Below, one piece after another: positions 1,102 through 17,813 of a stretch of DNA of 17,813 nucleotides. Source of the stretch: a virus; UHGV virus genome UHGV-0388612. One strand, 5' to 3'. Made by a program: the position numbers and the translations under genes. Under the pieces are notes generated by a model. That model did no database searches and had not been told where the DNA came from. It saw only the letters and a list, made by a program, of their open reading frames with translations. Numbering within the stretch: the first letter of the stretch is position 1; every line of letters begins with the position of its first letter.

Positions 1102-1130
1102 ATAGTATCAAAAACCACTTGCCTTGTCAA
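1102..1130 (-). promoter_or_regulatory. sigma-A-like promoter: TTGACA, 17-nt spacer, extended -10 TGaTACTAT
   Basis: Minus-strand read: TTGACA (1130..1125), AGGCAAGTGGTTTTTGA, TACTAT (1107..1102). The predicted TSS is about 30 nt upstream of the ATG at 1065. The -35 overlaps the U-tract of the preceding terminator. Confidence 0.5.
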
Positions 1131-1160
1131 GAAGAAAAGCAGCCCTCTTCCGAGGGCTGC
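1131..1160 (-). terminator. Rho-independent terminator after endolysin gene
   Basis: Perfect 9-bp GC stem GCAGCCCTC / GAGGGCTGC with a 4-nt loop, followed on the minus strand by UUUUCUUCUUG. It begins 3 nt after the endolysin stop (1164-1166). Confidence 0.7.
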
Positions 1161-2308: not shown

Positions 2309-3334
2309 CTAAAATCCCAGATAGTCGAACACGTTGTTGAAGAACTCTCGCGTCTCGATAGTGTCGAAGAACACGCTTCCCTGCATGTACAGCTTGCGAA
2401 CGCTTCTCAACACGACACTAGACTTCTCTATCATAAGCAGGTTAGGCTGCATATCCGATTTTGTCAAGACGTAAACAAGAGCATCCTTCGGGTACCTGCT
2501 TGAAACGTAGTAGGCACCTTCCGTGTAGTCCACCCAAACACCGACCGTCCTGTTGTCGAACCGCAACGCGAAGTAGAATCTCGCTTCCTCCGATTTCTTG
2601 GCGATGAACTTGTCGTTGTCATCGTAGAACATGTTTCCCACTGCGTAATCGTAATAGGACGTTCCACGTATCATCTGACCGAATCTTGTCGTGTCCACGT
2701 GCGCCCTGAACCGATCGCTCTGCACAATCTCTACACACATGTACCCTTTGTGCGCCATGAGAAAGCGCTTTCCCTTCCTCGGCTTCAACCTCCATCCGAT
2801 GAAGTACGGATTGGTGAGCGCCACGGCGTTAGCCATGAACATAACCTTAACCCTGTCCTGAAATCGGTCAACCGTGTTGTAGAAGTCTTGGAACTGCTTC
2901 AACTCGTTTTGCAAGTAATGCAGCGAACCCTTGTCAATGATGAACTCGTCAAATCCTATCATATCAACGTCGGGATAGGGTACAGACTTTTTGGTCAGCG
3001 CGTTTGCCAACGTGATGAAGAAACATAGCACGCGCCATTTCTCTGGCTTTTCATCACCTATCGCAACCTTTCTGATGTACCCTTTCATTCCCTCAACTTT
3101 GAACTCCCACGATGGGAAGCGGTCAACAATATCCTGAAAGAACTCCTGCTTGTCATCGAACTCCGACTTGTATCTGCGCAAGTATATGAACTGCTTACCA
3201 GTCTTTATGAAATGCCTGATTCGTTTGTACTTGAAATCATACGTCTTGCCAGTGCCACGCCCGCCGATAACGAAATTGAACATAGCGTTGCGCGTCATAA
3301 TGTCGTGAGAATCGTAATACATGCTGTCGCTCAT
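2309..3334 (-). CDS. DNA packaging ATPase (phi29 gp16 family)
   Basis: Similarity along the length to phi29 gp16. Walker A is FNFVIGGRGTGKTY (phi29 NFVIGARGIGKSY). Walker B is MIGFDEF (phi29 TIVFDEF). Also FIYLRRYK, NPYF and GVWVD blocks match. The chosen start is the ATG at 3332-3334 (MSDSMYYD...), which overlaps the upstream stop as ATGA. The first in-frame ATG at 3355 has no SD. Confidence 0.9.
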   Translation of the reverse strand: MSDSMYYDSHDIMTRNAMFNFVIGGRGTGKTYDFKYKRIRHFIKTGKQFIYLRRYKSEFDDKQEFFQDIVDRFPSWEFKVEGMKGYIRKVAIGDEKPEKWRVLCFFITLANALTKKSVPYPDVDMIGFDEFIIDKGSLHYLQNELKQFQDFYNTVDRFQDRVKVMFMANAVALTNPYFIGWRLKPRKGKRFLMAHKGYMCVEIVQSDRFRAHVDTTRFGQMIRGTSYYDYAVGNMFYDDNDKFIAKKSEEARFYFALRFDNRTVGVWVDYTEGAYYVSSRYPKDALVYVLTKSDMQPNLLMIEKSSVVLRSVRKLYMQGSVFFDTIETREFFNNVFDYLGF

Positions 3335-4602
3335 AGGTACCGTCTCACCTCCCAATAATACATGTACCGTGGATAGTTCCTAGCATCGGTTGTGGTTTGG
3401 TCTGGTCCGTAATCGGGTCCACCATGTCCCCAAAGTTCATTGTTGCCCATGTACAGTTCAACGTGGTCAAATGAGCCGTTCCAACCATTCCACATAATCA
3501 GCACCAAATCGGCTGGCTCCATATCCTCGATGGGTAGGTTGTCACCAGAATAGCCGCTTGCTATCTTCGTCCCCTTGCCCGCCATAGCGCCCGTCCACGT
3601 GCCAACGTCGATTCCAGCAACCTGCTGGTACGCGAACCACACCGTAGAAGAACAGTCACCATATCCGCTGCTTATGGGGTCAAGCCGTCCAGCACCCTGC
3701 GAGTACGCGAACCTGTCAAGCCATGAGCGGTACAATTCGCATATGGCGTTCTGCGCTTCGCTTCCGCTCTCCGAACCGCCGCCCTCGTTGCCGCCGCCAA
3801 TGTCAGTTCCGTTCGCGTTGTACCCGTTAATCCAAACCTGTCCAGATGCGGGATAGAATATAACGCCTTTTTCGTACTCGTCTCTGCCATATAATATGAG
3901 TGTATCGCCATTTTGAATTATGTACCCCAACTTGCTTTCTTCTGTGCTAATCCCAGGGTTGTTGCCCCCCGGCGTTGTGTCAACGTCTCCGCTCTGACCG
4001 AAATCAGGCGGGTTGCTCTCACCGTCCCAATCCTTCAATCTCTGGTACACGGTGTTGTAGCGATTCCTGTACTGCCCAAGAACTCCGTGGTTCATGCAAA
4101 CGGTGTAAATCCTATCGAGGTCGGCGCTGCCGCCCGCCGTCGCTATCACCTGCCCCGCACTTGCTGGTGATTGATGGTACATGCTCATTGCGAAAATCAA
4201 CGGTTTAGGATAGGACTGACTCATGCCCCAATTTTCAAGCGTTGTGATGTACCCCTCGAAATCCACAATCGCCTGATTCTCTTGAATAACGTGGTTCTCT
4301 TTTTCTTGGAAAACAGTTATGATGCTGTTTCCCTCGTCCCTGTTAAGGTACCTGCTAGTCCACCATGTACTACCAGCATCATGGGATTCAATGTCCGAAC
4401 GCAACGAAGCAGCCAACTGCCCGTAGGCAGTTGGCATTTCGTTTTTGATGCGGTTGAGCAGCGCAGCAGCCCGTGTACCATACCACTGCATCATCCCTAT
4501 CGTGATAGGGTCGTTGTAGTTCACGGCAGTCCAATTCCAGTTGGATTCTACCTCGCCGATAACGTACATGGCATAATAGCATATGGTTCTGGTACTTGGC
4601 AT
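3331..4602 (-). CDS. tail-associated peptidoglycan hydrolase (phi29 gp13 position): N-terminal lysozyme-like domain, Gly-rich linker, C-terminal NlpC/P60-like cysteine peptidase
   Basis: N-terminus GEVESNWNW...GMMQWYG resembles the lysozyme-like (glutamate-dependent) tail lysin fold. A GGGNEGGGSESGSE linker follows. The C-terminus carries YGDCSSTVWFAY ... FDHVELYMG, a Cys...His arrangement typical of NlpC/P60. SD AAGGAGTGA sits 3 nt upstream of the ATG at 4600-4602. Confidence 0.7.
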   Translation of the reverse strand: MPSTRTICYYAMYVIGEVESNWNWTAVNYNDPITIGMMQWYGTRAAALLNRIKNEMPTAYGQLAASLRSDIESHDAGSTWWTSRYLNRDEGNSIITVFQEKENHVIQENQAIVDFEGYITTLENWGMSQSYPKPLIFAMSMYHQSPASAGQVIATAGGSADLDRIYTVCMNHGVLGQYRNRYNTVYQRLKDWDGESNPPDFGQSGDVDTTPGGNNPGISTEESKLGYIIQNGDTLILYGRDEYEKGVIFYPASGQVWINGYNANGTDIGGGNEGGGSESGSEAQNAICELYRSWLDRFAYSQGAGRLDPISSGYGDCSSTVWFAYQQVAGIDVGTWTGAMAGKGTKIASGYSGDNLPIEDMEPADLVLIMWNGWNGSFDHVELYMGNNELWGHGGPDYGPDQTTTDARNYPRYMYYWEVRRYL

Positions 4603-4612
4603 CGTTCACTCC

Positions 4613-5539
4613 TTACTGCGCGCCGAAGTACACAAGCCCAACGCCGTTTACCGTTCCAGCACTGTGCGCTTGGGAATCCCAAACTGACAGTTTCACCGCA
4701 CCGCTGGGATAGACGTGCAAGATGCCCCAACCGCTGAAACAGGATTGCGACATCAATCGCGTGGGTCGGTACCCTTCGGGAACGGTGCCAAGCGCGGTGT
4801 TTATCCAGTTGCCGCTGCCAGAAGTGTTGAGAGATGTGTTGTCAAGCTGCACGCTGACAACCTTGGTAATGCTGTTGGCATAAACGGAAAACGTGCCAGA
4901 ACCAGAGATACCGTCACTGTAATTAACGGTCTTAGCTGCAATAAGAGGCTTGGGAGCAAGCGCGCTTCTAAGCTCGTTAATCTGGTCTGCGACCATCTTC
5001 GGCGATGCCGCAGTGCCAGTGGACGCAGCAGCCGCGCCGTCGTCCACAACCTTCAAATGCCCGAAGTTCGTAGACGAACCCTGACCATAGGTGTTGGCGG
5101 TGCTTGCGTGATCGGTCGGTGCTTTCCCGTTCACGGCAGTCTGCAATCCGTTAATGTCGTTCTGCGCTTCCGTGATATCGCCCTCTGCCGCGGTCACGCG
5201 ACCAGTGAGCGACGTAACGTCGGATTGCGTGTCCGCAATGCCGCTCTCGTTGGTCTTTGCGAGGGAAAGCGCGTCATTAGCCGTCTTTTGAACGTCCGTG
5301 ATTTGCGTCCCGTGCGTCTCCACAGTGGATTCCAGCGCCGAAATGCCCTTCTGCGCTTCGGTCATCTGCGTTTGCAGCGTGAGAACGTTGGCGTTGGCGT
5401 TGGTAACGTCATCCGCGCTCTTCTTCATCTGCGTGTCAATCTTTCCCATTGCGGCGTTGTACTGGTCACGCAGGTTCGGCTTGTCAGCCGAAGCGTACAG
5501 GTCAAGATTGTAGTTCGGCGTGTATTCCGTAGCCATCAT
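4613..5539 (-). CDS. tail fibre / receptor-binding protein, long paralog (308 aa): conserved N-terminal anchor, Ala/Thr/Gln-rich coiled-coil stalk, beta-rich C-terminal head
   Basis: N-terminal 39 aa are about 56% identical to the adjacent 119-aa ORF (MMATEYTPNYNLDLYASADKPNLRDQYNAAMGKIDTQMK). The central region has a heptad-like TQ/AE-rich sequence. The C-terminus ends ...GLVYFGAQ like its paralog (GIVYFKPAS). It shares an identical 24-nt start/RBS element with the paralog. Confidence 0.6.
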   Translation of the reverse strand: MMATEYTPNYNLDLYASADKPNLRDQYNAAMGKIDTQMKKSADDVTNANANVLTLQTQMTEAQKGISALESTVETHGTQITDVQKTANDALSLAKTNESGIADTQSDVTSLTGRVTAAEGDITEAQNDINGLQTAVNGKAPTDHASTANTYGQGSSTNFGHLKVVDDGAAAASTGTAASPKMVADQINELRSALAPKPLIAAKTVNYSDGISGSGTFSVYANSITKVVSVQLDNTSLNTSGSGNWINTALGTVPEGYRPTRLMSQSCFSGWGILHVYPSGAVKLSVWDSQAHSAGTVNGVGLVYFGAQ

Positions 5540-6521: not shown

Positions 6522-7274
6522 CTAAAGCGCGTTCCAATAATCAGTGTATATACCCATGAAAAGCTCGTTCAAATCGCCTATAACCATCATGTCGATGTTC
6601 AGGAACGTCTCACGGAACTGCATGAGGGCTTGTGCCTTGGTGATACCCGATATGCCGCTCACGTGCGTGACGTAATCCTCCAACGTCTTTGAACTCGCCT
6701 TCGTGGTGTCGCTTGCTTCGCTTTCCGCATTGCTGTCCTGCTCACTCGTTCCCTTCGCAGTCGTGTTGCTCGTGCTGTCAGTGAGGTTGGTCGCGTAGTC
6801 CTCGTTCCCAGAAAGCTGCATCTGCGGTGTCGTGCTTACCACGGTTCGCGCCGTGCTGTCGGTGTCGTTCACCGTCTCGCTCGTTGCCTTGGTAGCCGTG
6901 TTCTCGGTACGCGAATAGTCCCTAGACTGGTCAGACGTTCCGCTCGTGCTTCCCTCCGTGCGCATGTCATAGTTGCTGAACGGGTCGAAATCCTGCAACG
7001 CGCTCTTGTACAGTTGATTGTAGAACGGCATAATCTCGTTCATCTTGCGGTTCAGAAAACGCCTGAAAAGCGCGGGAGTCTCCTGCCCAATCTCTCGAAA
7101 GAAGAAATGCTCAACAATCTTCGCGTTCAGCGGCGCACGGTATTCTTCATCGAAAATGGGGTATTTGTCAAGCCCCAAATCGAATCCGTTTTCGACAAGC
7201 GAACCCAACTCCACCGTGAAGATTGCCCCACGATGATAGGGAACGCCGCACTCTCCGTCCTCGTACAAACTCAT
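6522..7274 (-). CDS. lower collar protein (phi29 gp11 position), Ser/Thr-rich central region
   Basis: Called by position, immediately after the connector gene. The start ATG overlaps the connector stop (ATGA). SD GGAGGTG is 7 nt upstream. The low-complexity ST-rich middle is compatible with long beta-hairpin collar proteins. I could not confirm homology from memory. Confidence 0.55.
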   Translation of the reverse strand: MSLYEDGECGVPYHRGAIFTVELGSLVENGFDLGLDKYPIFDEEYRAPLNAKIVEHFFFREIGQETPALFRRFLNRKMNEIMPFYNQLYKSALQDFDPFSNYDMRTEGSTSGTSDQSRDYSRTENTATKATSETVNDTDSTARTVVSTTPQMQLSGNEDYATNLTDSTSNTTAKGTSEQDSNAESEASDTTKASSKTLEDYVTHVSGISGITKAQALMQFRETFLNIDMMVIGDLNELFMGIYTDYWNAL

Positions 7275-8170
7275 AACCCAGCACCTCCATCCGTCTGAAC
7301 CTCGGGGTCAGCCATGAGAAGCACGTTCATGTTCTGGCTAGAAACGTCCTTGTTCATGTCGCACCAAACCTCAAGCCCATACTTGCGGTTAATCTGCCTG
7401 CACGCTTCGCGTCTGCAATTCAGGCGAATAAGGCGGTTCGCTTCAATCTGACCGTTGTTCGCTTCAACCTCGGCGCTCTGAACTCGCTCCGCTTTGCTGA
7501 TGTTCGTGTTCTCGATGCCGAAGTACGTCATAATCTCTGCCCAAACCGTCTGCTTTGCTTTGAGCAGTTCGGGCGTGATGAACGGCGCACCAGAACTAAG
7601 GTAGGTAATCTGCGATGGGTCGAACATTCCGTCAGCGCCCACGATGATAGGCTCGTTGCCCACATACTGCTTCATAAGGTTCTGAATGGTCAACCGCTGC
7701 GATTCAGGGACAACCGCGAATATTGGCATCTTCTGGCTCATAAGGTTCACGTCCACGGTTCTGTCAATGTCCGCAAGCCTACGCGCGTAGATTCGCATTG
7801 CGTTAATGTCTGGTCTGCGCAGATAGTTGTTCCAGATGGGTACACATTCGGTAGACTTCAACCGACGATGAAAGCCGTTAGTGCCGTATGCGATATACGC
7901 AAGCGGATTCTGGTACATGTTAATCTGCCCAGACGGTGCGCCCATCGTAGAGAAATAAGCATCGTACTCGTCATCCCAGAAAAACACGCTCATTCCGCGA
8001 TTGAAAAGTGTCAGTTCGAGAAAGCGCTGGTCAATCTCCGTCGGCAATCCCTCCCAACGGTATATCGCGCAAGCCATCTGCTCCAACATTTCATAGTACA
8101 TGCGGTACTGCAAGTTGTTCATTTCAGCAGACTGCCACGTGTTGCGCTTGCCCTTGCGATTCCTTCCCAT
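7271..8170 (-). CDS. head-tail connector / portal (phi29 gp10 family)
   Basis: Recognisable blocks against phi29 gp10: RREACRQINRKYGLEV versus REEACEKINELYGLNV, and GNEPIIV versus GNAPVIF. The N-terminal MGRNRKGKRNTWQS versus MARKRSNTYRS is also similar. SD GAAGGGGGTG precedes the ATG at 8168-8170, which overlaps the gp9 stop (TGATG). Confidence 0.9.
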   Translation of the reverse strand: MGRNRKGKRNTWQSAEMNNLQYRMYYEMLEQMACAIYRWEGLPTEIDQRFLELTLFNRGMSVFFWDDEYDAYFSTMGAPSGQINMYQNPLAYIAYGTNGFHRRLKSTECVPIWNNYLRRPDINAMRIYARRLADIDRTVDVNLMSQKMPIFAVVPESQRLTIQNLMKQYVGNEPIIVGADGMFDPSQITYLSSGAPFITPELLKAKQTVWAEIMTYFGIENTNISKAERVQSAEVEANNGQIEANRLIRLNCRREACRQINRKYGLEVWCDMNKDVSSQNMNVLLMADPEVQTDGGAGL

Positions 8171-10357: not shown

Positions 10358-11803
10358 TTAGCCTGCGGACGTGTACGCCTTGTCAATGCCGATAATCAAA
10401 TCCTTGTGCTGGTACACCTGCGAACCCATCGCAACGGTCGGGTCAATGTAAGTGCTGGTCGCAGTAACGGTAACGTTCTCCGCAATCTCGTCCTCGGCAA
10501 CGTGAAGAACGCCCTCGGCATCCACGAACGTGCCCAGCTTCAACCGAACGCCGCCGCTCTCAACACCCGTGTTGTTCGCGGTGATTGCGAACGTGCAGCC
10601 CTGCGGAACCGTGTACCCCTCCGTCTCGGGCGTTACGGTGCCCTGAACCGTGGCGATAAGGCGCGTCTTTCCACCGCGCTCTGCGTAAGTGGGTTTCACT
10701 CCGTCAACCTCCGCATAGTCGAGCGTAACACCAGTTGCCTTAATGGCGGGAACAGTCACGCTGGTGCCAGCTTCCGTGGTGAACATGACTGCGTTCACGA
10801 AACGGGACACGGAATAGATGCCGTGGTGATGCAGCCAGTAGTTCCACGAAATCGCCTTGGGATTGCGGATGCTCTCGAAGTCGATAAGCGTGTCCGCACA
10901 CATGAAGAAATCGCGGTCGCACAGAATGGCTTGGCAACCGTCGATGCCGAAATCGTCAATCTCGATAACGCGCATCTTGAAGTCGGCTGCGGATGCGTTG
11001 AACGCGAACGCGATAACGTTAACGTCGAGCATAGCCACGAACTCGGGAGTTGCGAACAGAACAAGGTCGTTGTTGTTCGTGAACGTCGGCGCACCTGCGG
11101 CGTTGTACTGTCCAGAAAGAAAGCGCATCTTGCCCGCCATCGAGCGCACGGCTTCCGTAATCGCCATAGCATCGTCCTGCTTCTCCGAACGGGTTGCAGC
11201 AGCCGACGCATCGGGAACCTGCACCTTGTAGAAGCCGTCGATTCGCGCGTACTCTGCGAAAAGGTTGCGCATGATAAGGTACTCGTCCCAGTAGTCGGAC
11301 GTGTACGGCGTTTCCATGATGCGCCCCACGAGGTCTTGCAGCCCGTAGTCGGTCAAGAACGCACGACGCAGAAGCATGTCGTTGATGGTCAACTCGTAGT
11401 AGTCCTGACGGTTGATGCTGTGAAAGTTGCTCATAACGTCGGGCGCGTGGCAAGCGAACACGTCATCATAGCACTTGTTCGGATCGTAGCGCTTAGCCTG
11501 AATCAGCGTGGTGGCAAGTTCCTCGATAGTCTCGCCGTACTGCATCATGCCGCGCTTGAACTGCGCGAGCGGGTTAGTCCAAACCTTGCTCTTGATGACG
11601 ACGTCTCCGATGCGGTTCACAAGCGCGTCGATGAACTCGTTCATCATAGGGCGGTATTCGAGCAGGTTGTTCACCGTCTCGGTAATGTCACCCTGCGTCG
11701 CAGCAGGAATGCGCTGCTGGTACGCGAACGAAGCATCGGTGCGAATCGCGTTCAAAATCTGCGCGTTCGTCGCGTTCAGCGTCTTGATAGTCTTAGTTGC
11801 CAT
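10358..11803 (-). CDS. major capsid protein (phi29 gp8 family, HK97-like with C-terminal Ig-like domain)
   Basis: Blocks LVNRIGDVVI versus LVDRIGLVVI, and RNPKAISWNYWLHHHGIYSVSRFVNAVMF versus [29 protein letters not shown]. The start is the ATG at 11801-11803 (MATKTIKTLNATNAQILNAIR, compare phi29 ...SYDIVNAIR) with SD AAGGAGGA 8 nt upstream. The track start at 11893 is an upstream GTG/ATG extension without an SD. Confidence 0.9.
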   Translation of the reverse strand: MATKTIKTLNATNAQILNAIRTDASFAYQQRIPAATQGDITETVNNLLEYRPMMNEFIDALVNRIGDVVIKSKVWTNPLAQFKRGMMQYGETIEELATTLIQAKRYDPNKCYDDVFACHAPDVMSNFHSINRQDYYELTINDMLLRRAFLTDYGLQDLVGRIMETPYTSDYWDEYLIMRNLFAEYARIDGFYKVQVPDASAAATRSEKQDDAMAITEAVRSMAGKMRFLSGQYNAAGAPTFTNNNDLVLFATPEFVAMLDVNVIAFAFNASAADFKMRVIEIDDFGIDGCQAILCDRDFFMCADTLIDFESIRNPKAISWNYWLHHHGIYSVSRFVNAVMFTTEAGTSVTVPAIKATGVTLDYAEVDGVKPTYAERGGKTRLIATVQGTVTPETEGYTVPQGCTFAITANNTGVESGGVRLKLGTFVDAEGVLHVAEDEIAENVTVTATSTYIDPTVAMGSQVYQHKDLIIGIDKAYTSAG

Positions 11804-12134
11804 TGTTGCTGTCCTCCTTGTCATCGGTGAAAAGGTTGTCGATGTGGTACACGGTGCCGTCATCGTCCACGTCCTCAACGACAACACCGTCACCGTCGTT
11901 GTCGGCGGGAATCTGCATCAGCAGGTCATAGTTGCGAGCCTTCAAACTCTGAATGTCAGCCTTCATGGCTTCCTCGTTCGACGCATACTCGCTCATGCGG
12001 GCTTCCGCAGAACTTCGGTACTCGTCGGCATCCGCTCCCCGCTTAGCCATGTCCGTGAGGAACGTCTCTGCGGTCGCGTACTCGCCATCCTCCATCCTCT
12101 CACGGAGCCAAGCGAGCAAATCCTCTAGGTTCAT
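11793..12134 (-). CDS. scaffolding protein (phi29 gp7 position; 113 aa, acidic, helical)
   Basis: ATG at 12132-12134 (MNLEDLLAWLRERMEDGEY...) with SD GGAAGGAGAAG. It overlaps the MCP start by 11 nt. Composition and position match gp7. The longer track ORF (to 12215) runs into the structured non-coding region. Confidence 0.6.
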   Translation of the reverse strand: MNLEDLLAWLRERMEDGEYATAETFLTDMAKRGADADEYRSSAEARMSEYASNEEAMKADIQSLKARNYDLLMQIPADNDGDGVVVEDVDDDGTVYHIDNLFTDDKEDSNNGN

Positions 12135-12146
12135 GTTCTTCTCCTT

Positions 12147-12192
12147 CCAACAAAATAGCCCCCGCCATCTGGTTGTGACCGTGGCGAGGGCT
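12147..12192 (-). terminator. intrinsic-terminator-like hairpin immediately upstream of the scaffold gene RBS
   Basis: Minus strand: AGCCCUCGCCA (12192..12182), a 14-nt loop, UGGCGGGGGCU (12167..12157). This is an 11-bp stem with one G-U pair, followed by CUAUUUUGUUGG. Confidence 0.5.
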
Positions 12193-12317
12193 GACTGTGC
12201 TGGTGATATTGCCATTCCCGAAACGCCGCCGCTGCTAATGCGGCTCGCACTCGTGCGGGCGGTATCACCCGTAGCAACCCCGCATCGGTCATCGTCCAGA
12301 CGGATTGGGTATCACCA
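12147..12317 (-). ncRNA. candidate about 170-nt structured non-coding RNA (pRNA-like packaging RNA, or an attenuator leader)
   Basis: A promoter TTGACA-17-TATGTT lies immediately upstream and an intrinsic terminator lies at the 3' end. The sequence is GC-rich with multiple nested inverted repeats: GGUGAUA (12316..12310) pairs with UAUCACC (about 12209..12203); CGCC...GGCG encloses two hairpins, CGCA-CGAG-UGCG and GCCGC-AUUAGCA-GCGGC. No ORF is supported in this stretch. The length is close to the 174-nt phi29 pRNA. Confidence 0.3.
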
Positions 12318-12322
12318 TAGCC

Positions 12323-12351
12323 AACATAACCCACTTCGCAAGCACTGTCAA
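12323..12351 (-). promoter_or_regulatory. sigma-A-like promoter TTGACA(12351..12346)-17 nt-TATGTT(12328..12323)
   Basis: Read from the sequence. The -35 overlaps the RHH gene stop codon. It is oriented toward the structured region and the late genes. Confidence 0.45.
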
Positions 12352-12515
12352 GCACTCGCGTTCATTTTCACCAGATCAATCGAATCGGAGTAGGCGTTCA
12401 AAAACTGCGAGATTGCGACGCGCACCAGATACGATATGGGCAGGTTCTCCCTCTCGCCAATCTCCTTCAACTGCTCGTACATGGATTCGTCAATCCTGAA
12501 ACTGCGCTCAATCAT
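12348..12515 (-). CDS. ribbon-helix-helix (Arc/MetJ/CopG-like) DNA-binding protein, 55 aa
   Basis: Not in the ORF track because it is under 60 aa. The ATG at 12513-12515 has a perfect SD AGGAGGT 6 nt upstream and lies 12 nt after the DNAP stop. The sequence is MIERSFRIDESMYEQLKEIGERENLPISYLVRVAISQFLNAYSDSIDLVKMNASA. It has an N-terminal beta-strand with alternating residues (RSFRID), then two helices, the RHH signature. Confidence 0.6.
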   Translation of the reverse strand: MIERSFRIDESMYEQLKEIGERENLPISYLVRVAISQFLNAYSDSIDLVKMNASA

Positions 12516-12529
12516 TGCTGTACCTCCTA

Positions 12530-14242
12530 TCAGGTGAGCGTGAACGTTATGGGTTCGAGCACTATACCACCCCTAACGTGCCTTGGCTTCAACTTCCCGT
12601 GAAGCTGCAAGCCCCTCTTGAAACTGTCGAACGTCACCATGCGCTTCAACTCCTCTGGCATACCGGCGCACTTAACGTCATCGAACGGCTGAACGTCAAC
12701 CATCCTGTATTCGCCATCAACCATCTTGCCAACCTGATATATTCTCTCCATGTACGTCTTAGCCCTGATATATTTAGCCATGCTGAAATTGCTCTCATGC
12801 TTCCACGCGCCCAAACGTGTAGGATGCACCTCCAAACCCTCGGGAATGTCTGTGCCGCAAATGTGTATGCTGTCCGTGTCACAGTACATGAACCTATCGT
12901 ATACGCTTTGCGCTGCATTGATGGTCTTGTACCTAGCCCATGCGGTAATAAAGCAACCCATAGGCGTGTACACGGGGTCGCGCGTCTCTTTCTCTCCCAA
13001 TCTGTACCCAACTGAACCGTCCTCTTTCAAGTAAGGCAGTTTCGGCGTAACGTCGGGGTTCGTGGCGAACTTGCCATAAAGTGAGTTCAACATGAGCTTC
13101 GCAAGCTGTCGCAAACCGCCCGTGGTAGTTTCTTTAATGTGCATCCAATAGTCTATGTAATCTTTGAACAGCCCAGTGGCTTGCTCGAACATGTACCCGC
13201 CGTTGTACGAAAACACCGTCACGTCGTACTGCTGCATGAGTATTTCCAAGTCTATGTTGGTCAAAGCCAACTCAACTGTTCCCTCCGTGTCATGGATGTA
13301 CTCCGTTTCGGAGAAAAACGGGTTGTTCTTAATCTGCAACGTGGGGAGGTGGTCGGGCTTCAACTTGCAATGGCAGGTGAGGAATTGAATGTACAGGGGA
13401 TATTGGGGGTTGTCCTTGTACTCTCCGTGGAAATATATCGGCTGCCCGATTGGCAACGGTCTGTTGTACATAACGTCGGGGTACAGCGAGTTAACGTCAA
13501 ACGCAGCCCCGTAGCCCTGCAACCTGTCCTCGTGTTCCTCGTCAGCCTGAAACCTAGGGTTCGCGTATGTGTAGCCGCCGCGATACGCCTTGCGTATCAT
13601 CGCGTCCATTTCCAGATGAATCTTAGGGAACCAGTCATCCCACTTCGAGCCTATTATGTCCTTGTACCCGTTGAGCGCGTCGCTTCCGATGGTAAGCCTG
13701 TCAAGCCCCTTGCCGAACTGCTGATGCAGCGCCCTAGCGACGATCTGAACGTCGTTCCTGATGTAGTCTCGTTCCTGCGCTGTCAACTCGTGACCTATGG
13801 GGCGGTACTCCGTATAGTCAATCTCCAACTTGGATATGGGGAGGTCGAAAGCCTTTGCAATCTGCGATACCTTCATGGGGAGTTTCTTCAAGCTGTCTTT
13901 GAATGTGCAGGTTAGCGCTTTCTTCTTGCCCTTCTTCTCAAAGCAAACCTTCATCTGATAGAACTTGCCCATGTTTGATATGAGCGTTTTGAAAGTCTTT
14001 GTCCTCGCCTTTTCGCTGTACTCAAATCCGTTGGTCAGCAGGTACCATATAATGAACTCACAATCGAATGCAGCATTGTGGAAATAATATGTACCGCCGT
14101 GAACCTTGCAGAAATCAAGAAACGTGGCAATGTCCGTTCCATAGCTTAGTGCGTCGGGGTTGTCAATCTCGCACACGCACCACGCCCAAACGCGACAATC
14201 ATTTATATCTATGGTTGTCTCGAAGTCTGCGGCGTACTCCAT
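12530..14242 (-). CDS. protein-primed family B DNA polymerase (phi29 gp2 family)
   Basis: High similarity over the full length to phi29 DNAP. Motifs present: Exo I DFETT; Exo II YFHNAAFDCEFI; Exo III YIRNDVQI; motif A DVNSLYP; motif B KLMLNSLYGKF; motif C YCDTDS; plus YNGGYMFEQATGLFKDYIDYW and PVYTPMGCFITAWARY blocks. Confidence 0.95.
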   Translation of the reverse strand: MEYAADFETTIDINDCRVWAWCVCEIDNPDALSYGTDIATFLDFCKVHGGTYYFHNAAFDCEFIIWYLLTNGFEYSEKARTKTFKTLISNMGKFYQMKVCFEKKGKKKALTCTFKDSLKKLPMKVSQIAKAFDLPISKLEIDYTEYRPIGHELTAQERDYIRNDVQIVARALHQQFGKGLDRLTIGSDALNGYKDIIGSKWDDWFPKIHLEMDAMIRKAYRGGYTYANPRFQADEEHEDRLQGYGAAFDVNSLYPDVMYNRPLPIGQPIYFHGEYKDNPQYPLYIQFLTCHCKLKPDHLPTLQIKNNPFFSETEYIHDTEGTVELALTNIDLEILMQQYDVTVFSYNGGYMFEQATGLFKDYIDYWMHIKETTTGGLRQLAKLMLNSLYGKFATNPDVTPKLPYLKEDGSVGYRLGEKETRDPVYTPMGCFITAWARYKTINAAQSVYDRFMYCDTDSIHICGTDIPEGLEVHPTRLGAWKHESNFSMAKYIRAKTYMERIYQVGKMVDGEYRMVDVQPFDDVKCAGMPEELKRMVTFDSFKRGLQLHGKLKPRHVRGGIVLEPITFTLT

Positions 14243-14244
14243 AG

Positions 14245-15060
14245 CTACCTACGTTTTTTGCTTTTACGCTTGCGTTTTCCGGTCTGCTTCTTGGGGTACT
14301 GGTTCTGAACCTGTTGAATGGTCAGTATCATATGCTCTTTCTGCGCTTCATCGTCCATAGCGTCAGCCTGCGCGCCCATAACGTTATCGCGGTCGGTGTT
14401 TATGTACCTGTAATAAAGGGGGACGAAGTTTGTGAAGTTCTGCAACGCAAACAGTTGTTCGTTGCTCAACTTCCTAATCATGTTGGGTATTCGCGGGTCG
14501 TTGAACGTCGCGGCGTGTTCCAAAAGGTTCTTGCGAAGCTGCGTTATCCGCTTGCGCTGGTACGTCGGGGATAGTTCGCGCTTCAAAATCTGCGATCGCT
14601 TCCGCAAATCCGCTTCGCTGCGTATCTGCTCGGGGAGTAGTTGGCGCTGATAGTCTATGTTGCCGAACGGCAAGCCCTTAACATGAGCCATAGCCGAACG
14701 CATCCCCAATGTTGTATCGCTCTCGCCGTAGGCGGTTAGGAACGGATGCGCGGCGAACTTCTGCCAATATCTGTTATGTTCCCTGTTCCATTGCCTTTCA
14801 AGCCGTTTGTAATCCCTATAAGCCGTGTACGGTATCGGGGTACCGTCGCGCCCCGCGACAAAACGTGTCGAACGTGATATGAACTTTTCCAACTGGTTGG
14901 CGTATGAGTTTAGCACCCTCGTGTTCGACGGGTCAACCGTCCTGAACGGCTCTACGCTGCCCGTCCTTATGCCCTTGTTCTGCAATCTCTTGATTTTGCG
15001 CCGCGCCCTCCGTTCTGCATCCGCAACACGGGCGCGGGCGTTCTCGTTAGCCTTGGTCAT
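14245..15060 (-). CDS. terminal protein (phi29 gp3 position), strongly basic C-terminal tail
   Basis: Immediately upstream of and translationally coupled to the DNAP (stop TAG, then CT, then ATG). SD AAGGAGGTGA is 4 nt upstream of the ATG at 15058-15060. The length is 271 aa (phi29 TP is 266 aa). It is rich in R/K/Q and helical in character. It ends in KKQTGKRKRKSKKRR. Confidence 0.6.
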   Translation of the reverse strand: MTKANENARARVADAERRARRKIKRLQNKGIRTGSVEPFRTVDPSNTRVLNSYANQLEKFISRSTRFVAGRDGTPIPYTAYRDYKRLERQWNREHNRYWQKFAAHPFLTAYGESDTTLGMRSAMAHVKGLPFGNIDYQRQLLPEQIRSEADLRKRSQILKRELSPTYQRKRITQLRKNLLEHAATFNDPRIPNMIRKLSNEQLFALQNFTNFVPLYYRYINTDRDNVMGAQADAMDDEAQKEHMILTIQQVQNQYPKKQTGKRKRKSKKRR

Positions 15061-15129: not shown

Positions 15130-15546
15130 TTACTTGTGGCGCTGCAAGCTGGTGAACTTGTACCCGTTGCGCCCCTGCTTCTTCACAACTTCGAACTTGA
15201 TTGCGGGATTCCACGGCGGGCAACCTACGATGCTGAAAAGGTTCTTCATCGAGGTTTCAACGCCCGTGCTGGTGCATCCGTAGGCATCGCCCTTCGGGGT
15301 GATAAGCACGATGCGATTGCGCTGCATAATCTCACCCGTCGCATTGTCGGTCATTTCCACGGGCTGAATAATGACGTTCTCAACCTCAACGACCTTCCCC
15401 ACCATGTCATCGAGGGAGAGGGAGTTAGAAACAGCCTCGTAAATGTCCAGCCTGTCCTCTTGCGTCTCCGCATGAATCGAGCAATACATGCCCTTAACCA
15501 TATCGGGCGCGTCGTTCGTGATGGTCGCAAGTTCGGTGTTCTCCAT
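15130..15546 (-). CDS. single-stranded DNA-binding protein (phi29 p5-like)
   Basis: The N-terminus MENT... is identical to phi29 p5, and the C-terminus ...YKFTSLQRHK resembles p5 ...VFFSLQLSL. Size is 138 aa versus 124 aa. It sits between the p6-like and TP genes. SD AAAGGA is 7 nt upstream. Confidence 0.65.
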   Translation of the reverse strand: MENTELATITNDAPDMVKGMYCSIHAETQEDRLDIYEAVSNSLSLDDMVGKVVEVENVIIQPVEMTDNATGEIMQRNRIVLITPKGDAYGCTSTGVETSMKNLFSIVGCPPWNPAIKFEVVKKQGRNGYKFTSLQRHK

Positions 15547-15597: not shown

Positions 15598-15858
15598 TTA
15601 GTCCTCGTCCGCTTCTGTCGCGTCGCAAGGGGTGCCGTACTTCTTGAAGTCCTCAAACGTCATCTTGTACAGCTGCTCATGCTCCACAACGTCAACGGCT
15701 GCAAAACTAGGCTCCTGCTTGCGAATGAGCGCTTGAGCGGTGTTCAGGCCGCACTTCTTGTCAAGCTGATAGGCAACCTGCACGGGCTGACCGTCCTTGA
15801 TAACGTACCCGCGCACCTCCGTGCTTGTGAACTTCTTCTGAATCGTGTTGCGTGCCAT
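15598..15858 (-). CDS. small early protein, candidate dsDNA-binding/nucleoid protein (phi29 p6-like), acidic C-terminus
   Basis: First gene after a near-consensus promoter. It is 86 aa with an acidic tail (CDATEADED), like p6. SD GGAAAGGA is 7 nt upstream. It lies upstream of the SSB as in the phi29 gene 6-5 order. Confidence 0.5.
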   Translation of the reverse strand: MARNTIQKKFTSTEVRGYVIKDGQPVQVAYQLDKKCGLNTAQALIRKQEPSFAAVDVVEHEQLYKMTFEDFKKYGTPCDATEADED

Positions 15859-15898
15859 GATAAAATCCTTTCCGTTGTGTACCTTAATGGCAACTCAT

Positions 15899-15927
15899 AT
15901 ATTACGCCTTTCGGTGCGGCTTGTCAA
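15899..15927 (-). promoter_or_regulatory. early promoter TTGACA(15927..15922)-17 nt-TAATAT(15904..15899)
   Basis: Read from the sequence. The predicted TSS is about 34 nt upstream of the p6-like ATG. A second TTGCAA hexamer lies 20 nt further upstream. Confidence 0.55.
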
Positions 15928-16109
15928 GTATTAAAACCCACTTGCAAGCCGATCCACAAAACCTACATAATTGGGGAGCTAGTCCGCATCATCAATCTTG
16001 ATGACCGCATACCATACCTCCGTGATAGTCGATAATCTTACGAACGTTCTTTTCCAATTTAGTCTCCATTGTACTACCCCTTTCTAACAGATGGGCATGT
16101 TGCCTAAAT

Positions 16110-17362: not shown

Positions 17363-17374
17363 CATAATATGTAC

Positions 17375-17403
17375 TTGCATATGCTCACCACCTATGCTAT
17401 AAT
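17375..17403 (+). promoter_or_regulatory. promoter TTGCAT(17375-17380)-17 nt-TATAAT(17398-17403), plus strand
   Basis: Consensus -10, read from the sequence. The TSS is about 21 nt upstream of the ATG at 17431. Confidence 0.55.
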
Positions 17404-17430
17404 ATAGTCACAAAGAAAGGAGATATACAT

Positions 17431-17610
17431 ATGAATGATGTTGTTATTGTTCCTCATGTGCTCCCTAACCCGTACAAGACTGCGGCGCTGGGGAGGTACA
17501 TGGGGAACGGAGGGAACAAAGTACAACATTATCGCCGTAGACGGCGACTAGCGCTGATTATAACCGGCTCAGCCATCAGTAATACCTCCCCAACTGTTTC
17601 ATGTACTTGA
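17431..17610 (+). CDS. hypothetical small protein (59 aa) with Arg-rich segment
   Basis: SD AGGAG is 8 nt upstream. The sequence is MNDVVIVPHVLPNPYKTAALGRYMGNGGNKVQHYRRRRRLALIITGSAISNTSPTVSCT. Its 3' end overlaps the convergent minus ORF by 35 nt. Confidence 0.4.
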   Translation: MNDVVIVPHVLPNPYKTAALGRYMGNGGNKVQHYRRRRRLALIITGSAISNTSPTVSCT

Positions 17611-17797
17611 TGAACTGTCGAAGATGGTACTGAGCTTCTTTTCCAACTTCCGGGTCTGATACTTCCAGCTGCTTCTTCCCGGTGTCGCATATTCTTATCT
17701 GTACAGTGGCGGATATATACATATCAGTTTCAACCGTGTATTTAACATCTTCGATTTTATAAACATTATCCTCGATGATCTGAATAGTATCTACCAT
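17576..17797 (-). CDS. hypothetical protein (at least 73 aa), possibly N-terminally truncated by the window edge
   Basis: The sequence looks protein-like (MVDTIQIIEDNVYKIEDVKYTVETDMYISATVQIRICDTGKKQLEVSDPEVGKEAQYHLRQFIKYMKQLGRYY). There is no SD before the ATG at 17797. The reading frame stays open to the window end, so the true start may lie outside. Confidence 0.35.
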   Translation of the reverse strand: MVDTIQIIEDNVYKIEDVKYTVETDMYISATVQIRICDTGKKQLEVSDPEVGKEAQYHLRQFIKYMKQLGRYY

Positions 17798-17813
17798 GTC
17801 GCCATTCTTAGTC

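Follow-up and report, generated by a model that had tools for sequence, protein, structure and literature searches.

Between the early and late gene blocks of the viral contig UHGV-0388612, at positions 12347..12135 of the minus strand, lies a gap that carries an RNA gene, and we propose that its product is probably a divergent prohead (packaging) RNA (pRNA) of the phi29 type. The contig was analysed over its whole length of 17,813 nt and is called the window below. A pRNA-like packaging RNA had been put forward at this place in the initial annotation, and the proposal gains support from a covarying structure, the complementarity of two loops, a promoter of its own, a 3' hairpin domain, the position of the gene, and the presence of a gp16-like ATPase and a gp10-like connector. 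Comparison of related sequences indicates that the feature is real and is selected as an RNA on the minus strand. A pRNA-type RNA in gut phages would most likely be new, as such RNAs have been known until now only from Bacillus phages. To our knowledge, reviews present the pRNA as a curiosity limited to phi29 and related Bacillus phages.

The RNA consists of a structured domain I of 115 nt, a 9-nt linker and a hairpin/U-tract domain of about 46 nt, after which the late genes follow. Counted from a start near 12318-12316 up to the U-tract near 12148, it measures roughly 170 nt, in agreement with the pRNA-like length noted initially, and its GC content is 62%. The features are given below. R1 is a covariance model of 13 sequences; its structure, with helices A1, A2, A3, B, C, E and D, was set on the window sequence. 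R2 is a second-generation covariance model. Percentages are those of alignment cells that are paired.

12323..12351, minus strand: sigma-70-type promoter, TTGACA at 12351..12346, 17-nt spacer, TATGTT at 12328..12323, matching the consensus at 10 of 12 positions.
12202..12316, minus strand: domain I, the conserved structured core, 115 nt, scoring 121.1 bits with R1 and 119.9 bits with R2, the sole match in the window.
12310..12316, minus strand: 5' strand of helix A1, GGUGAUA, pairing with 12208..12202; 95.8% paired, double changes in 5/7 pairs.
12202..12208, minus strand: 3' strand of helix A1, UAUCACC, with the same helix 1 covariation.
12302..12308, minus strand: 5' strands of helices A2 and A3, CCA at 12308..12306 and UCC at 12304..12302; 95.1% paired, 6/6 pairs double-changed.
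12212..12218, minus strand: 3' strands of helices A2 and A3, GGA at 12218..12216 and UGG at 12214..12212.
12288..12301, minus strand: hairpin B (GUC UGGACGAU GAC); 90% paired, one pair with a double change.
12254..12284, minus strand: C-bulge-E arm (helices 4 and 6); 95.8% and 100% paired, double changes in 5/6 and 3/3 pairs.
12284..12279 with 12259..12254, minus strand: helix C, UGCGGG/CCCGCA, part of the C-bulge-E arm.
12278..12272, minus strand: C/E bulge GUUGCUA, 7 nt, between helices C and E.
12272..12276, minus strand: UGCUA in the C/E bulge, a strand resembling the CE loop and complementary to UAGCA of the D loop.
12268..12263, minus strand: hexaloop GUGAUA of helix E (CGG/CCG), at the tip of the C-bulge-E arm.
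12228..12244, minus strand: hairpin D, GCCGC, loop AUUAGCA (12239..12233), GCGGC; 93.5% paired, 5/5 pairs double-changed.
12233..12237, minus strand: UAGCA in the D loop, complementary to 12276..12272.
12193..12201, minus strand: linker AGCACAGUC, single-stranded, 9 nt.
12147..12192, minus strand: domain II, an intrinsic terminator with an 11-bp GC-rich hairpin at 12192..12157 and the U-tract AUUUUGUUGG at 12156..12147.

Helix A has 13 pairs in total, 11 of them changed on both sides, and is interrupted by the bulged C12309 and by an A.A mismatch (12305/12215) between A2 and A3. The end-to-end helix GGUGAUA/UAUCACC recognised in the initial annotation is backed by compensatory changes in relatives, which carry GGUGACA/UGUCACU, GGUGGCA/UGCCACU, GGUGGUU/AACCACC or GAGCGGG/CCCGCUC. 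Instead of the internal junction of two hairpins described there, three hairpins are present, namely B, C-bulge-E and D. Hairpin B is weakly supported as a conserved helix, and its predicted stem reaches 4-5 bp in L019-23 and L024. Nowhere is the RNA more conserved than in GGGUGA.ACC. A lengthening of hairpin D by pairing of the 9-nt junction strands (alignment columns 72-75 with 108-111) was rejected, as only 69% of the cells were paired, no better than in shuffles.

The relatives compared here came from a polymerase-based scan of IMG/VR, which gave 42 loci with 28-99% identity, and from a protein search that supplied 11 further contigs with a polymerase identity of 58-86%; the polymerase belongs to a very large family with thousands of homologues in that search. 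The relatives of the window phage are human-gut viral contigs. In every relative down to about 58% polymerase identity, a gene-free gap of about 190-240 nt is found just upstream of the scaffold gene, except that one extra gene precedes the scaffold gene in L024 and a called small open reading frame (ORF) overlaps the RNA in L117. The Arc-like gene that borders the gap in the window is absent in L028/29 and L119, with the gap kept. The length of domain I stays within 111-120 nt across lineages with 58-99% polymerase identity, and the span between the two strands of the closing helix in the gap is always 111-118 nt.

In an alignment of 24 sequences, 92.4% of the cells form standard pairs, compared with 74.5% in shuffles, and 27 of the 35 pairs show changes on both sides. 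Sliding the partners by 1-3 columns lowers the covariation score from 0.515 to 0.04-0.10. Because the alignment followed the structure of the model, these nested-helix statistics are somewhat inflated. The collapse in the slid controls and the recovery of unseen lineages nevertheless speak for a real covariation signal. RNAalifold on a plain MAFFT alignment also finds the closing helix and the C/E hairpin, with compensatory changes in 13/24 pairs. Thus, the alignment with related phages that had been suggested as a check for covariation reveals a conserved structure. G.U pairs are frequent and would be C.A on the opposite strand; therefore, the minus strand is the transcribed one.

On lineages outside its training set, R1 returned full-length matches, always at the same locus (L119, 53.7 bits; L123, 53 bits; L117, 39.5 bits; L028/29, about 36 bits; L122, 35 bits), and R2 added L120 (26.3 bits, E 0.004). 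Nothing above 18 bits was obtained in 476 kb of unrelated viral DNA sharing a short motif. This DNA was collected with a degenerate DNA pattern scan of IMG/VR (72 loci), and most of these loci were rejected by the covariance model as chance matches. Neither R1 nor R2 matched L030-L042, which have 28-50% polymerase identity. Within this range, L032-L037 (about 48% polymerase identity) have a 141-nt gap after the ribbon-helix-helix (RHH) gene, for example at L032 4724-4864, with a hairpin, a promoter-like site and a second hairpin, and no R1 or R2 match was found within the 10 kb of each of these loci.

At the DNA level, domain I is conserved at least as well as the flanking genes, its identity being 94% versus 78-81% in L017 and 90% versus 76-81% in L113. 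Coding by an overlapping 53/74-aa ORF was rejected as a candidate explanation, as a 1-nt insertion disrupts the frame in L008 and L018/L019 have no such ORF. In a BLAST comparison aimed at cultured phages, the RNA matched none of 50,697 phage records, and a tRNA/tmRNA search found none.

Another link to pRNA is the complementarity between the C/E bulge and the D loop. In phi29, the CE and D loops pair between molecules and so form a ring on the prohead (PMC5066667). A recent structure-based search for pRNAs used as criteria a conserved two-dimensional structure, covarying left- and right-hand loops, and gp10 and gp16 in the genome; all new pRNAs it recovered were from phages of the Bacillus group (PMC12670572). 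The criteria applied here follow these two studies. The bulge and D-loop strands change between lineages as follows.

Window: UGCUA/UAGCA
L118: CGCUA/UAGCG
L123: GGCUA/UAGCC
L119: AGCAA/UUGCU
L120: UACGC/GCGUA
L117: GCGA/UCGC
L122: CAGC/GCUG
L116 and L028: GCCA/UGGC
L024: UGCCA/UGGCA
L019-23: CCC/GGG

In the raw register, 76% of the cells are paired. The complementarity has a mean of 4.66 for cognate and 3.61 for non-cognate combinations, and only 2 of 100,000 permutations were as high. This test is independent because a pseudoknot cannot be represented in a covariance model. Strands that change in sequence but remain complementary are, as far as predicted pairing can tell, the hallmark of the interlocking CE and D loops of pRNA. 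By analogy with phi29, we infer that the pairing takes place between molecules.

Single-sequence folding neither proves nor describes the element, because the window transcript by itself gives a stable but non-modular fold. The minimum-free-energy (MFE) structure of the window's own full transcript has -76.6 kcal/mol (z -2.83), and domain I folded alone has a z of -1.5 against mononucleotide shuffles. In most relatives, the unconstrained fold consists of domain I and an independent terminator hairpin. Of the folding check proposed initially, the modular structure therefore stands through the relatives, whereas the window's own MFE fold is the non-modular alternative. The modular fold, and not this alternative, is the predicted structure that the relatives support. 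The sequence GGUGAUACC is present twice, at 12316-12308 (5' strand of helix A) and at 12270-12262 (top of the E hairpin); therefore, the window RNA can adopt an alternative in which the second copy is paired with UAUCACC. Pairing of this second GGUGAUA, in the E loop, was rejected as the conserved arrangement, as the compensatory changes follow the 5'-terminal copy.

Downstream of domain I, the linker has 8-13 nt where RNAfold leaves it unpaired (9/18 lineages) and is partly paired in the other lineages. The terminator stem is formed by AGCCCUCGCCA (12192..12182) and UGGCGGGGGCU (12167..12157), with 11 bp including one G.U, and the hairpin folds at -27.0 kcal/mol. The U-run AUUUUGUU follows directly at 12156..12149. 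This 11-bp GC hairpin with its U-tract, already noted in the initial annotation, is read directly from the sequence, and folding agrees; a consensus terminator scan overlooked it, having a loop limit of 3-8 nt for a loop of 14 nt. The domain II hairpin occurs in 18/18 lineages with stems that differ in sequence, and a U-run follows in 15/18. The hairpin is followed by GUUCGCAUAU, CACCGAUGUA or GAACUAGCGA instead of a U-run in L020-L023 and L027 (for example L020 3040-3100), in L122 (4900-4960) and in L123 (4440-4500). In those lineages, therefore, the RNA is either co-transcribed with the late genes or ended by another mechanism.

A near-consensus -35/-10 pair is found 6-12 nt upstream of the first paired base (helix A) in about 15/18 related lineages, so that the promoter TTGACA-17-TATGTT recognised initially is kept in position. 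The promoter alone is weak evidence, because the whole window has 28 promoter-like sites versus 15.0 +/- 4.4 expected. The TGA stop of the adjacent Arc/CopG-type gene (12348-12350) falls within the -35 hexamer TTGACA (12346-12351), as it does in most relatives, and the repressor-like protein encoded by this gene might regulate the RNA promoter.

The suggestion that no obvious pRNA exists elsewhere holds for the sequences searched. No second match to R1, R2 or Rfam family RF00044 (Phage_pRNA) was found in the window, the longest near-identical contig (19,127 nt) gave no second pRNA candidate with R2 and Rfam, and folding of the other gaps yielded none. The gap 12135-12347 is not, as had been stated, the only sizeable non-coding stretch, as 15859-16109 (251 nt) and 17363-17575 are also without convincing genes. 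The latter, located near the early genome end among doubtful small ORFs, is unusually stable when either strand is folded (mononucleotide shuffles, z about -4.3; dinucleotide shuffles, z -2.90, 0/200 as good). It includes the hairpin GUCGCCGUCUACGGCGAU and a second, imperfect one of about 60 nt. Neither a closing helix like that of pRNA nor a junction is present, and no model matched there.

A similar RNA appears in a sister clade that includes a cultured phage. Hungatella phage CH17P1 (OP172758, L125) has a 235-nt gap between its polymerase and 'DNA packaging protein' genes. Within this gap, in the region 13640-13800, TTGACA-17-TAACAT precedes a 104-nt RNA with an 11-bp closing helix of its 5' and 3' ends and then a U-run (z -3.72); this RNA is not annotated in OP172758. 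It contains GCUACGGGGUGAAAUCCGC, nearly the same as the bulge-plus-E-hairpin sequence of the window. In the relatives of CH17P1, dozens of viral contigs (L126-L176), such an RNA of 104-113 nt lies just downstream of the polymerase gene in all cases. When folded without constraints, their MFE structures show helix A as a long stem that opens into a three-way junction, from which helix C, with a bulge of 6-7 nt, leads to the E hairpin and a separate arm forms the D hairpin, its loop also of 6-7 nt. As modelled, this is the textbook pRNA shape; RNAalifold recovers the core. Here too the bulge and D-loop strands vary together (GCUA/UAGC, UGCUA/UAGCA, GUCA/UGAC, AAUCA/UGAUU, UCCA/UGGA, UACCA/UGGUA and UAAUCA/UGAUUA), with 44 of 100,000 permutations as high. 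On 203 kb of sister loci, R2 gave only sub-threshold matches (16.8-19.2 bits), exactly at the RNA position in L140-L144, and Rfam searches of CH17P1 and nine sister loci found nothing relevant.

The sister-clade RNA shares with the window RNA the GCUACGGGGUGAAAUCCGC core, the order of helices, a promoter, a terminator and the place directly after the polymerase gene. It differs in its length of 104-113 nt, an uninterrupted long A helix, a true three-way junction and the lack of hairpin B. Its closing helix with the U-run looks like a terminator, without a separate domain II, and the gene downstream is that of the gp16-like ATPase instead of the scaffold gene and late operon. In L024, as mentioned, another gene follows the RNA. 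Therefore, the RNA tracks the polymerase and not a particular downstream gene. Since its place after the polymerase is constant and the downstream gene varies, a trans-acting RNA fits better than a dedicated late-operon leader.

Several points weigh against the assignment to pRNA. RF00044 has a gathering threshold of 100 bits and scores the pRNA of Bacillus phage PZA, used as a positive control, at 144.7 bits. The search with this family that had been suggested gave no match, either at the gathering level or at E <= 10, in the whole window and in 11900-12600, which places the RNA outside that family as modelled. Conversely, R2 did not match the Bacillus pRNA of PZA. With no model match either way, only a shared architecture is demonstrated, not homology with Bacillus pRNAs; common descent is plausible. 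Helix A of the window RNA has 13 interrupted pairs compared with about 22 in phi29 and lacks the CCA bulge, which in phi29 contacts the ATPase gp16. The extra hairpin B and the 9-nt junction strands contrast with the tight U-rich three-way junction of phi29, and these strands, which flank hairpin D, could let the loop pairing form within one molecule. The absence of a U-tract in L020-23/27, L122 and L123, and the lack of any other promoter between the RNA and the first late gene, leave room for a possible role of the RNA, sole or additional, as 5' leader of the late genes directly downstream.

If the element were only such a cis-acting leader of the late operon, an intramolecular pseudoknot between the bulge and the D loop would bind a phage or host factor, and the hairpin would set transcription into the scaffold, capsid and tail genes as an early-to-late gate. 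We consider this rather unlikely. The terminator lies only about 13 nt from the ribosome-binding site (RBS) of the first late gene, read-through is necessary in the lineages without a U-tract, the -35 box contains the end of the Arc-like repressor gene, and the long single-stranded junction strands around hairpin D permit an intramolecular kissing contact. However, no conserved pairing that competes with the terminator was found among the relatives folded, most unconstrained folds giving domain I and a separate hairpin, and the window's own alternative fold is not conserved. Antiterminator models were rejected for want of a conserved pairing mutually exclusive with the 5' strand of the terminator, and the C helix has changed in L117, L119 and L123 without a matching change in the terminator. 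The terminator/antiterminator gate offered as an alternative in the initial annotation thus finds its alternative fold in the window group alone, and the hairpin is kept even where the U-tract is missing. The sister-clade RNA, which precedes the ATPase gene and has a terminator-like helix and U-run of its own, and the intervening gene in L024 also argue against a dedicated leader. The promoter is of a near-consensus constitutive type, unlike activator-dependent late promoters; the phi29 late promoter A3 is activator-dependent. In addition, Rfam searches of the window at E <= 10 gave only chance matches (D12-methyl, Atu_C7 and SorX, 22.6 bits) and no riboswitch, T-box or leader family.

It is possible, though we hold it doubtful, that the RNA is both a packaging RNA and an obligatory leader of the late operon, so that all late transcription passes through the pRNA gene. 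In that case, the balance of stop and read-through at the domain II hairpin would set the ratio of pRNA to capsid and motor proteins, and lineages without a U-tract would have to cut the pRNA from the 5' end of the late mRNA. Phi29 is not known to link a structural RNA to the early-to-late switch in this way, and pRNA-dependent packaging would be widespread in gut phages of anaerobes instead of a Bacillus peculiarity.

An unlikely alternative is a trans-acting small RNA that is unrelated to packaging and pRNA-like in shape only, with a role in sequestration of a host protein, protein-primed replication or anti-defence. The lack of demonstrable homology to Bacillus pRNA by covariance models would be explained, the replication module ends with the RNA, and its most conserved part, the hexaloop hairpin GGGUGA.ACC, resembles a protein-binding site. 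Nevertheless, the whole set of pRNA features, including the covarying loops and the two-domain size plan, would then be a chance coincidence, and this in a phage with 50% polymerase identity to phi29 and with a gp16/gp10 motor of a kind that depends on pRNA in phi29, and with no second pRNA candidate in the window or the 19,127-nt contig. That the gap is an ordinary spacer with a promoter and a terminator but no functional RNA, its structure arising from GC-rich sequence, is extremely unlikely: the single-sequence folding of domain I is unremarkable and the z of -2.83 of the full transcript belongs to a fold other than the conserved one, but the covariation is strong, helix-specific and collapses in slid controls, the length of 111-120 nt is kept over 58-99% polymerase identity, unseen lineages are recovered by the model, and nucleotide conservation exceeds that of the neighbouring genes.

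For the preferred reading, that of a divergent pRNA, we propose the following mechanism. Host RNA polymerase would start at the sigma-70-type promoter, so that the 5' end of the RNA falls on helix A or no more than a few bases from it, and transcription would mostly halt at the GC hairpin and U-tract, releasing an RNA of about 170 nt. Domain I would be closed by helix A, with the C-bulge-E arm and the D hairpin leaving the junction. By analogy with phi29, the RNA may bind the prohead and be needed for packaging: the bulge of one molecule would pair with the D loop of the next, and several copies would ring the connector of the empty prohead. In this ring, the conserved E loop and the junction would face the prohead, and the A helices would project outward and dock the gp16-like ATPase, which would then pump the terminal-protein-capped DNA into the head.

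The genes around the RNA are consistent with this picture. All recognisable genes of the window are on the minus strand, and the early and late blocks are co-directional, with the RNA gene immediately upstream of the scaffold gene. The relevant features are as follows.

15858..15598, minus strand: p6-like double-stranded DNA-binding protein, early block, preceded by small early genes.
15546..15130, minus strand: single-stranded DNA-binding protein (SSB), after the p6-like gene.
15060..14245, minus strand: terminal protein, after the SSB gene.
14242..12530, minus strand: protein-primed DNA polymerase, after the terminal protein gene.
12348..12515, minus strand: 55-aa ribbon-helix-helix protein of the Arc/CopG type (phrog_3180, 7.9e-11; PF01402), last gene of the early (replication) block.
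12347..12135, minus strand: RNA-bearing gap between the early and late blocks.
11793..12134, minus strand: 113-aa protein in the position of the scaffold protein, without family match, first gene of the late block.
7271..8170, minus strand: gp10-like connector (upper collar; PF05352, 191.4 bits), presumed docking site of the RNA by analogy with phi29.
2309..3355, minus strand: gp16-like packaging ATPase (PF05894, 242.8 bits, profile positions 1-326 of 331), presumed partner of the RNA on the same analogy.

The gp16-like ATPase and the gp10-like connector named in the initial annotation are thus both identified by their families, and the N-terminus of the connector (MGRNRKGKRN) is strongly basic. 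The gene in the scaffold position has its RBS, AAGGAG, at 12146..12141, and its place ahead of the major capsid protein gene is conserved in relatives. Next in order are the genes of the major capsid protein, tail protein, connector, lower collar, gp16-like ATPase and endolysin. The polymerase of the window has 49.6% identity to that of phi29 and 52.9% to that of Hungatella phage CH17P1. After the endolysin gene, a strong terminator-like hairpin, GCAGCCCTC GGAA GAGGGCTGC, with a T-run lies at 1160..1139 (minus strand), and directly after it, before three small end ORFs, a TTGACA-17-TACTAT promoter with an upstream TG at 1130..1102 (minus strand). No inverted terminal repeat common to the ends 1-60 and 17754-17813 was found, unlike in complete phi29-type genomes, and near-identical contigs extend to 19,127 nt; for these two reasons, the true termini are probably missing from the window.

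A divergent but architecturally equivalent RNA would take the RNA-dependent packaging motor well beyond Bacillus, into a large family of phi29-like gut phages. If the assignment is true, many natural variants of the interlocking loops and the junction would become available to RNA nanotechnology and to the discussion of how the motor works and of ring stoichiometry. RF00044 would then miss most of the diversity of the family, and Hungatella phage CH17P1 would offer a cultured system for direct tests. With regard to the origin of pRNA, the loop pairing, the E hairpin and the closing helix would be the constant features, and the three-way junction, the CCA bulge and the length of helix A the variable ones.

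Among known systems, attenuating leaders such as riboswitches, T-boxes and protein-dependent attenuators resemble the window RNA in placing a structured RNA between a promoter and an intrinsic terminator upstream of an operon. They differ in that the window RNA has neither a conserved antiterminator/terminator alternative nor a family match, and in that the related RNA precedes differing genes.

The closer comparison is with the pRNAs (RF00044) of the Bacillus phages phi29, PZA, M2/Nf, B103, SF5 and GA-1. The sequence identity among pRNAs is only 12%, with the structure conserved (PMC5066667). The 174-nt pRNA of phi29 is divided into a domain I of 117 nt, a linker of 13 nt and a domain II of 44 nt, and its A helices contact the ATPase (PMC5066667). 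The size plan of the window RNA is similar (115 + 9 + about 46 nt, about 170 nt in total), and in both RNAs domain I is closed by a helix of its 5' and 3' ends. The RF00044 structure line on the PZA pRNA reads A helix, C helix, 9-nt bulge, E helix, 6-nt loop, C', UUU, D hairpin and A'. The same order of elements, including the 6-nt E loop, is found in the window RNA. In PZA, the nucleotides known to interlock are AACC, which immediately precedes helix E, and GGUU, in the 3' part of the D loop; the covarying strands of the window RNA occupy the same places. The pairing itself differs, comprising 4-6 bp around an invariant GC core in the window RNA versus AACC/GGUU, and the GC content is 62% versus 41%.

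The gene context shows the same mixture of likeness and difference. In phi29 and PZA, the pRNA gene comes after the polymerase gene and the small gene 1 cluster, at the end of the early operon and with its own promoter; in the window, it lies after the polymerase and one small gene. In contrast to the genome end in phi29, the window gene is located between co-directional blocks, upstream of the scaffold gene. In record NC_001423.1 (Bacillus phage PZA, L124), the pRNA is unannotated at 4883-5000, with ORF 0 on one side and the scaffold gene on the other. This record gives the early block the orientation of the late genes, so that the likeness to the gene order that the window phage really has is owed to the record. 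The hosts also differ from those of phi29, being presumably gut anaerobes, as the origin of the samples and the closest isolate, which is a Hungatella phage, suggest. Like the phi29 phages, the window phage is a terminal-protein phage with a gp16 ATPase, a gp10 connector, and SSB and p6-like genes.

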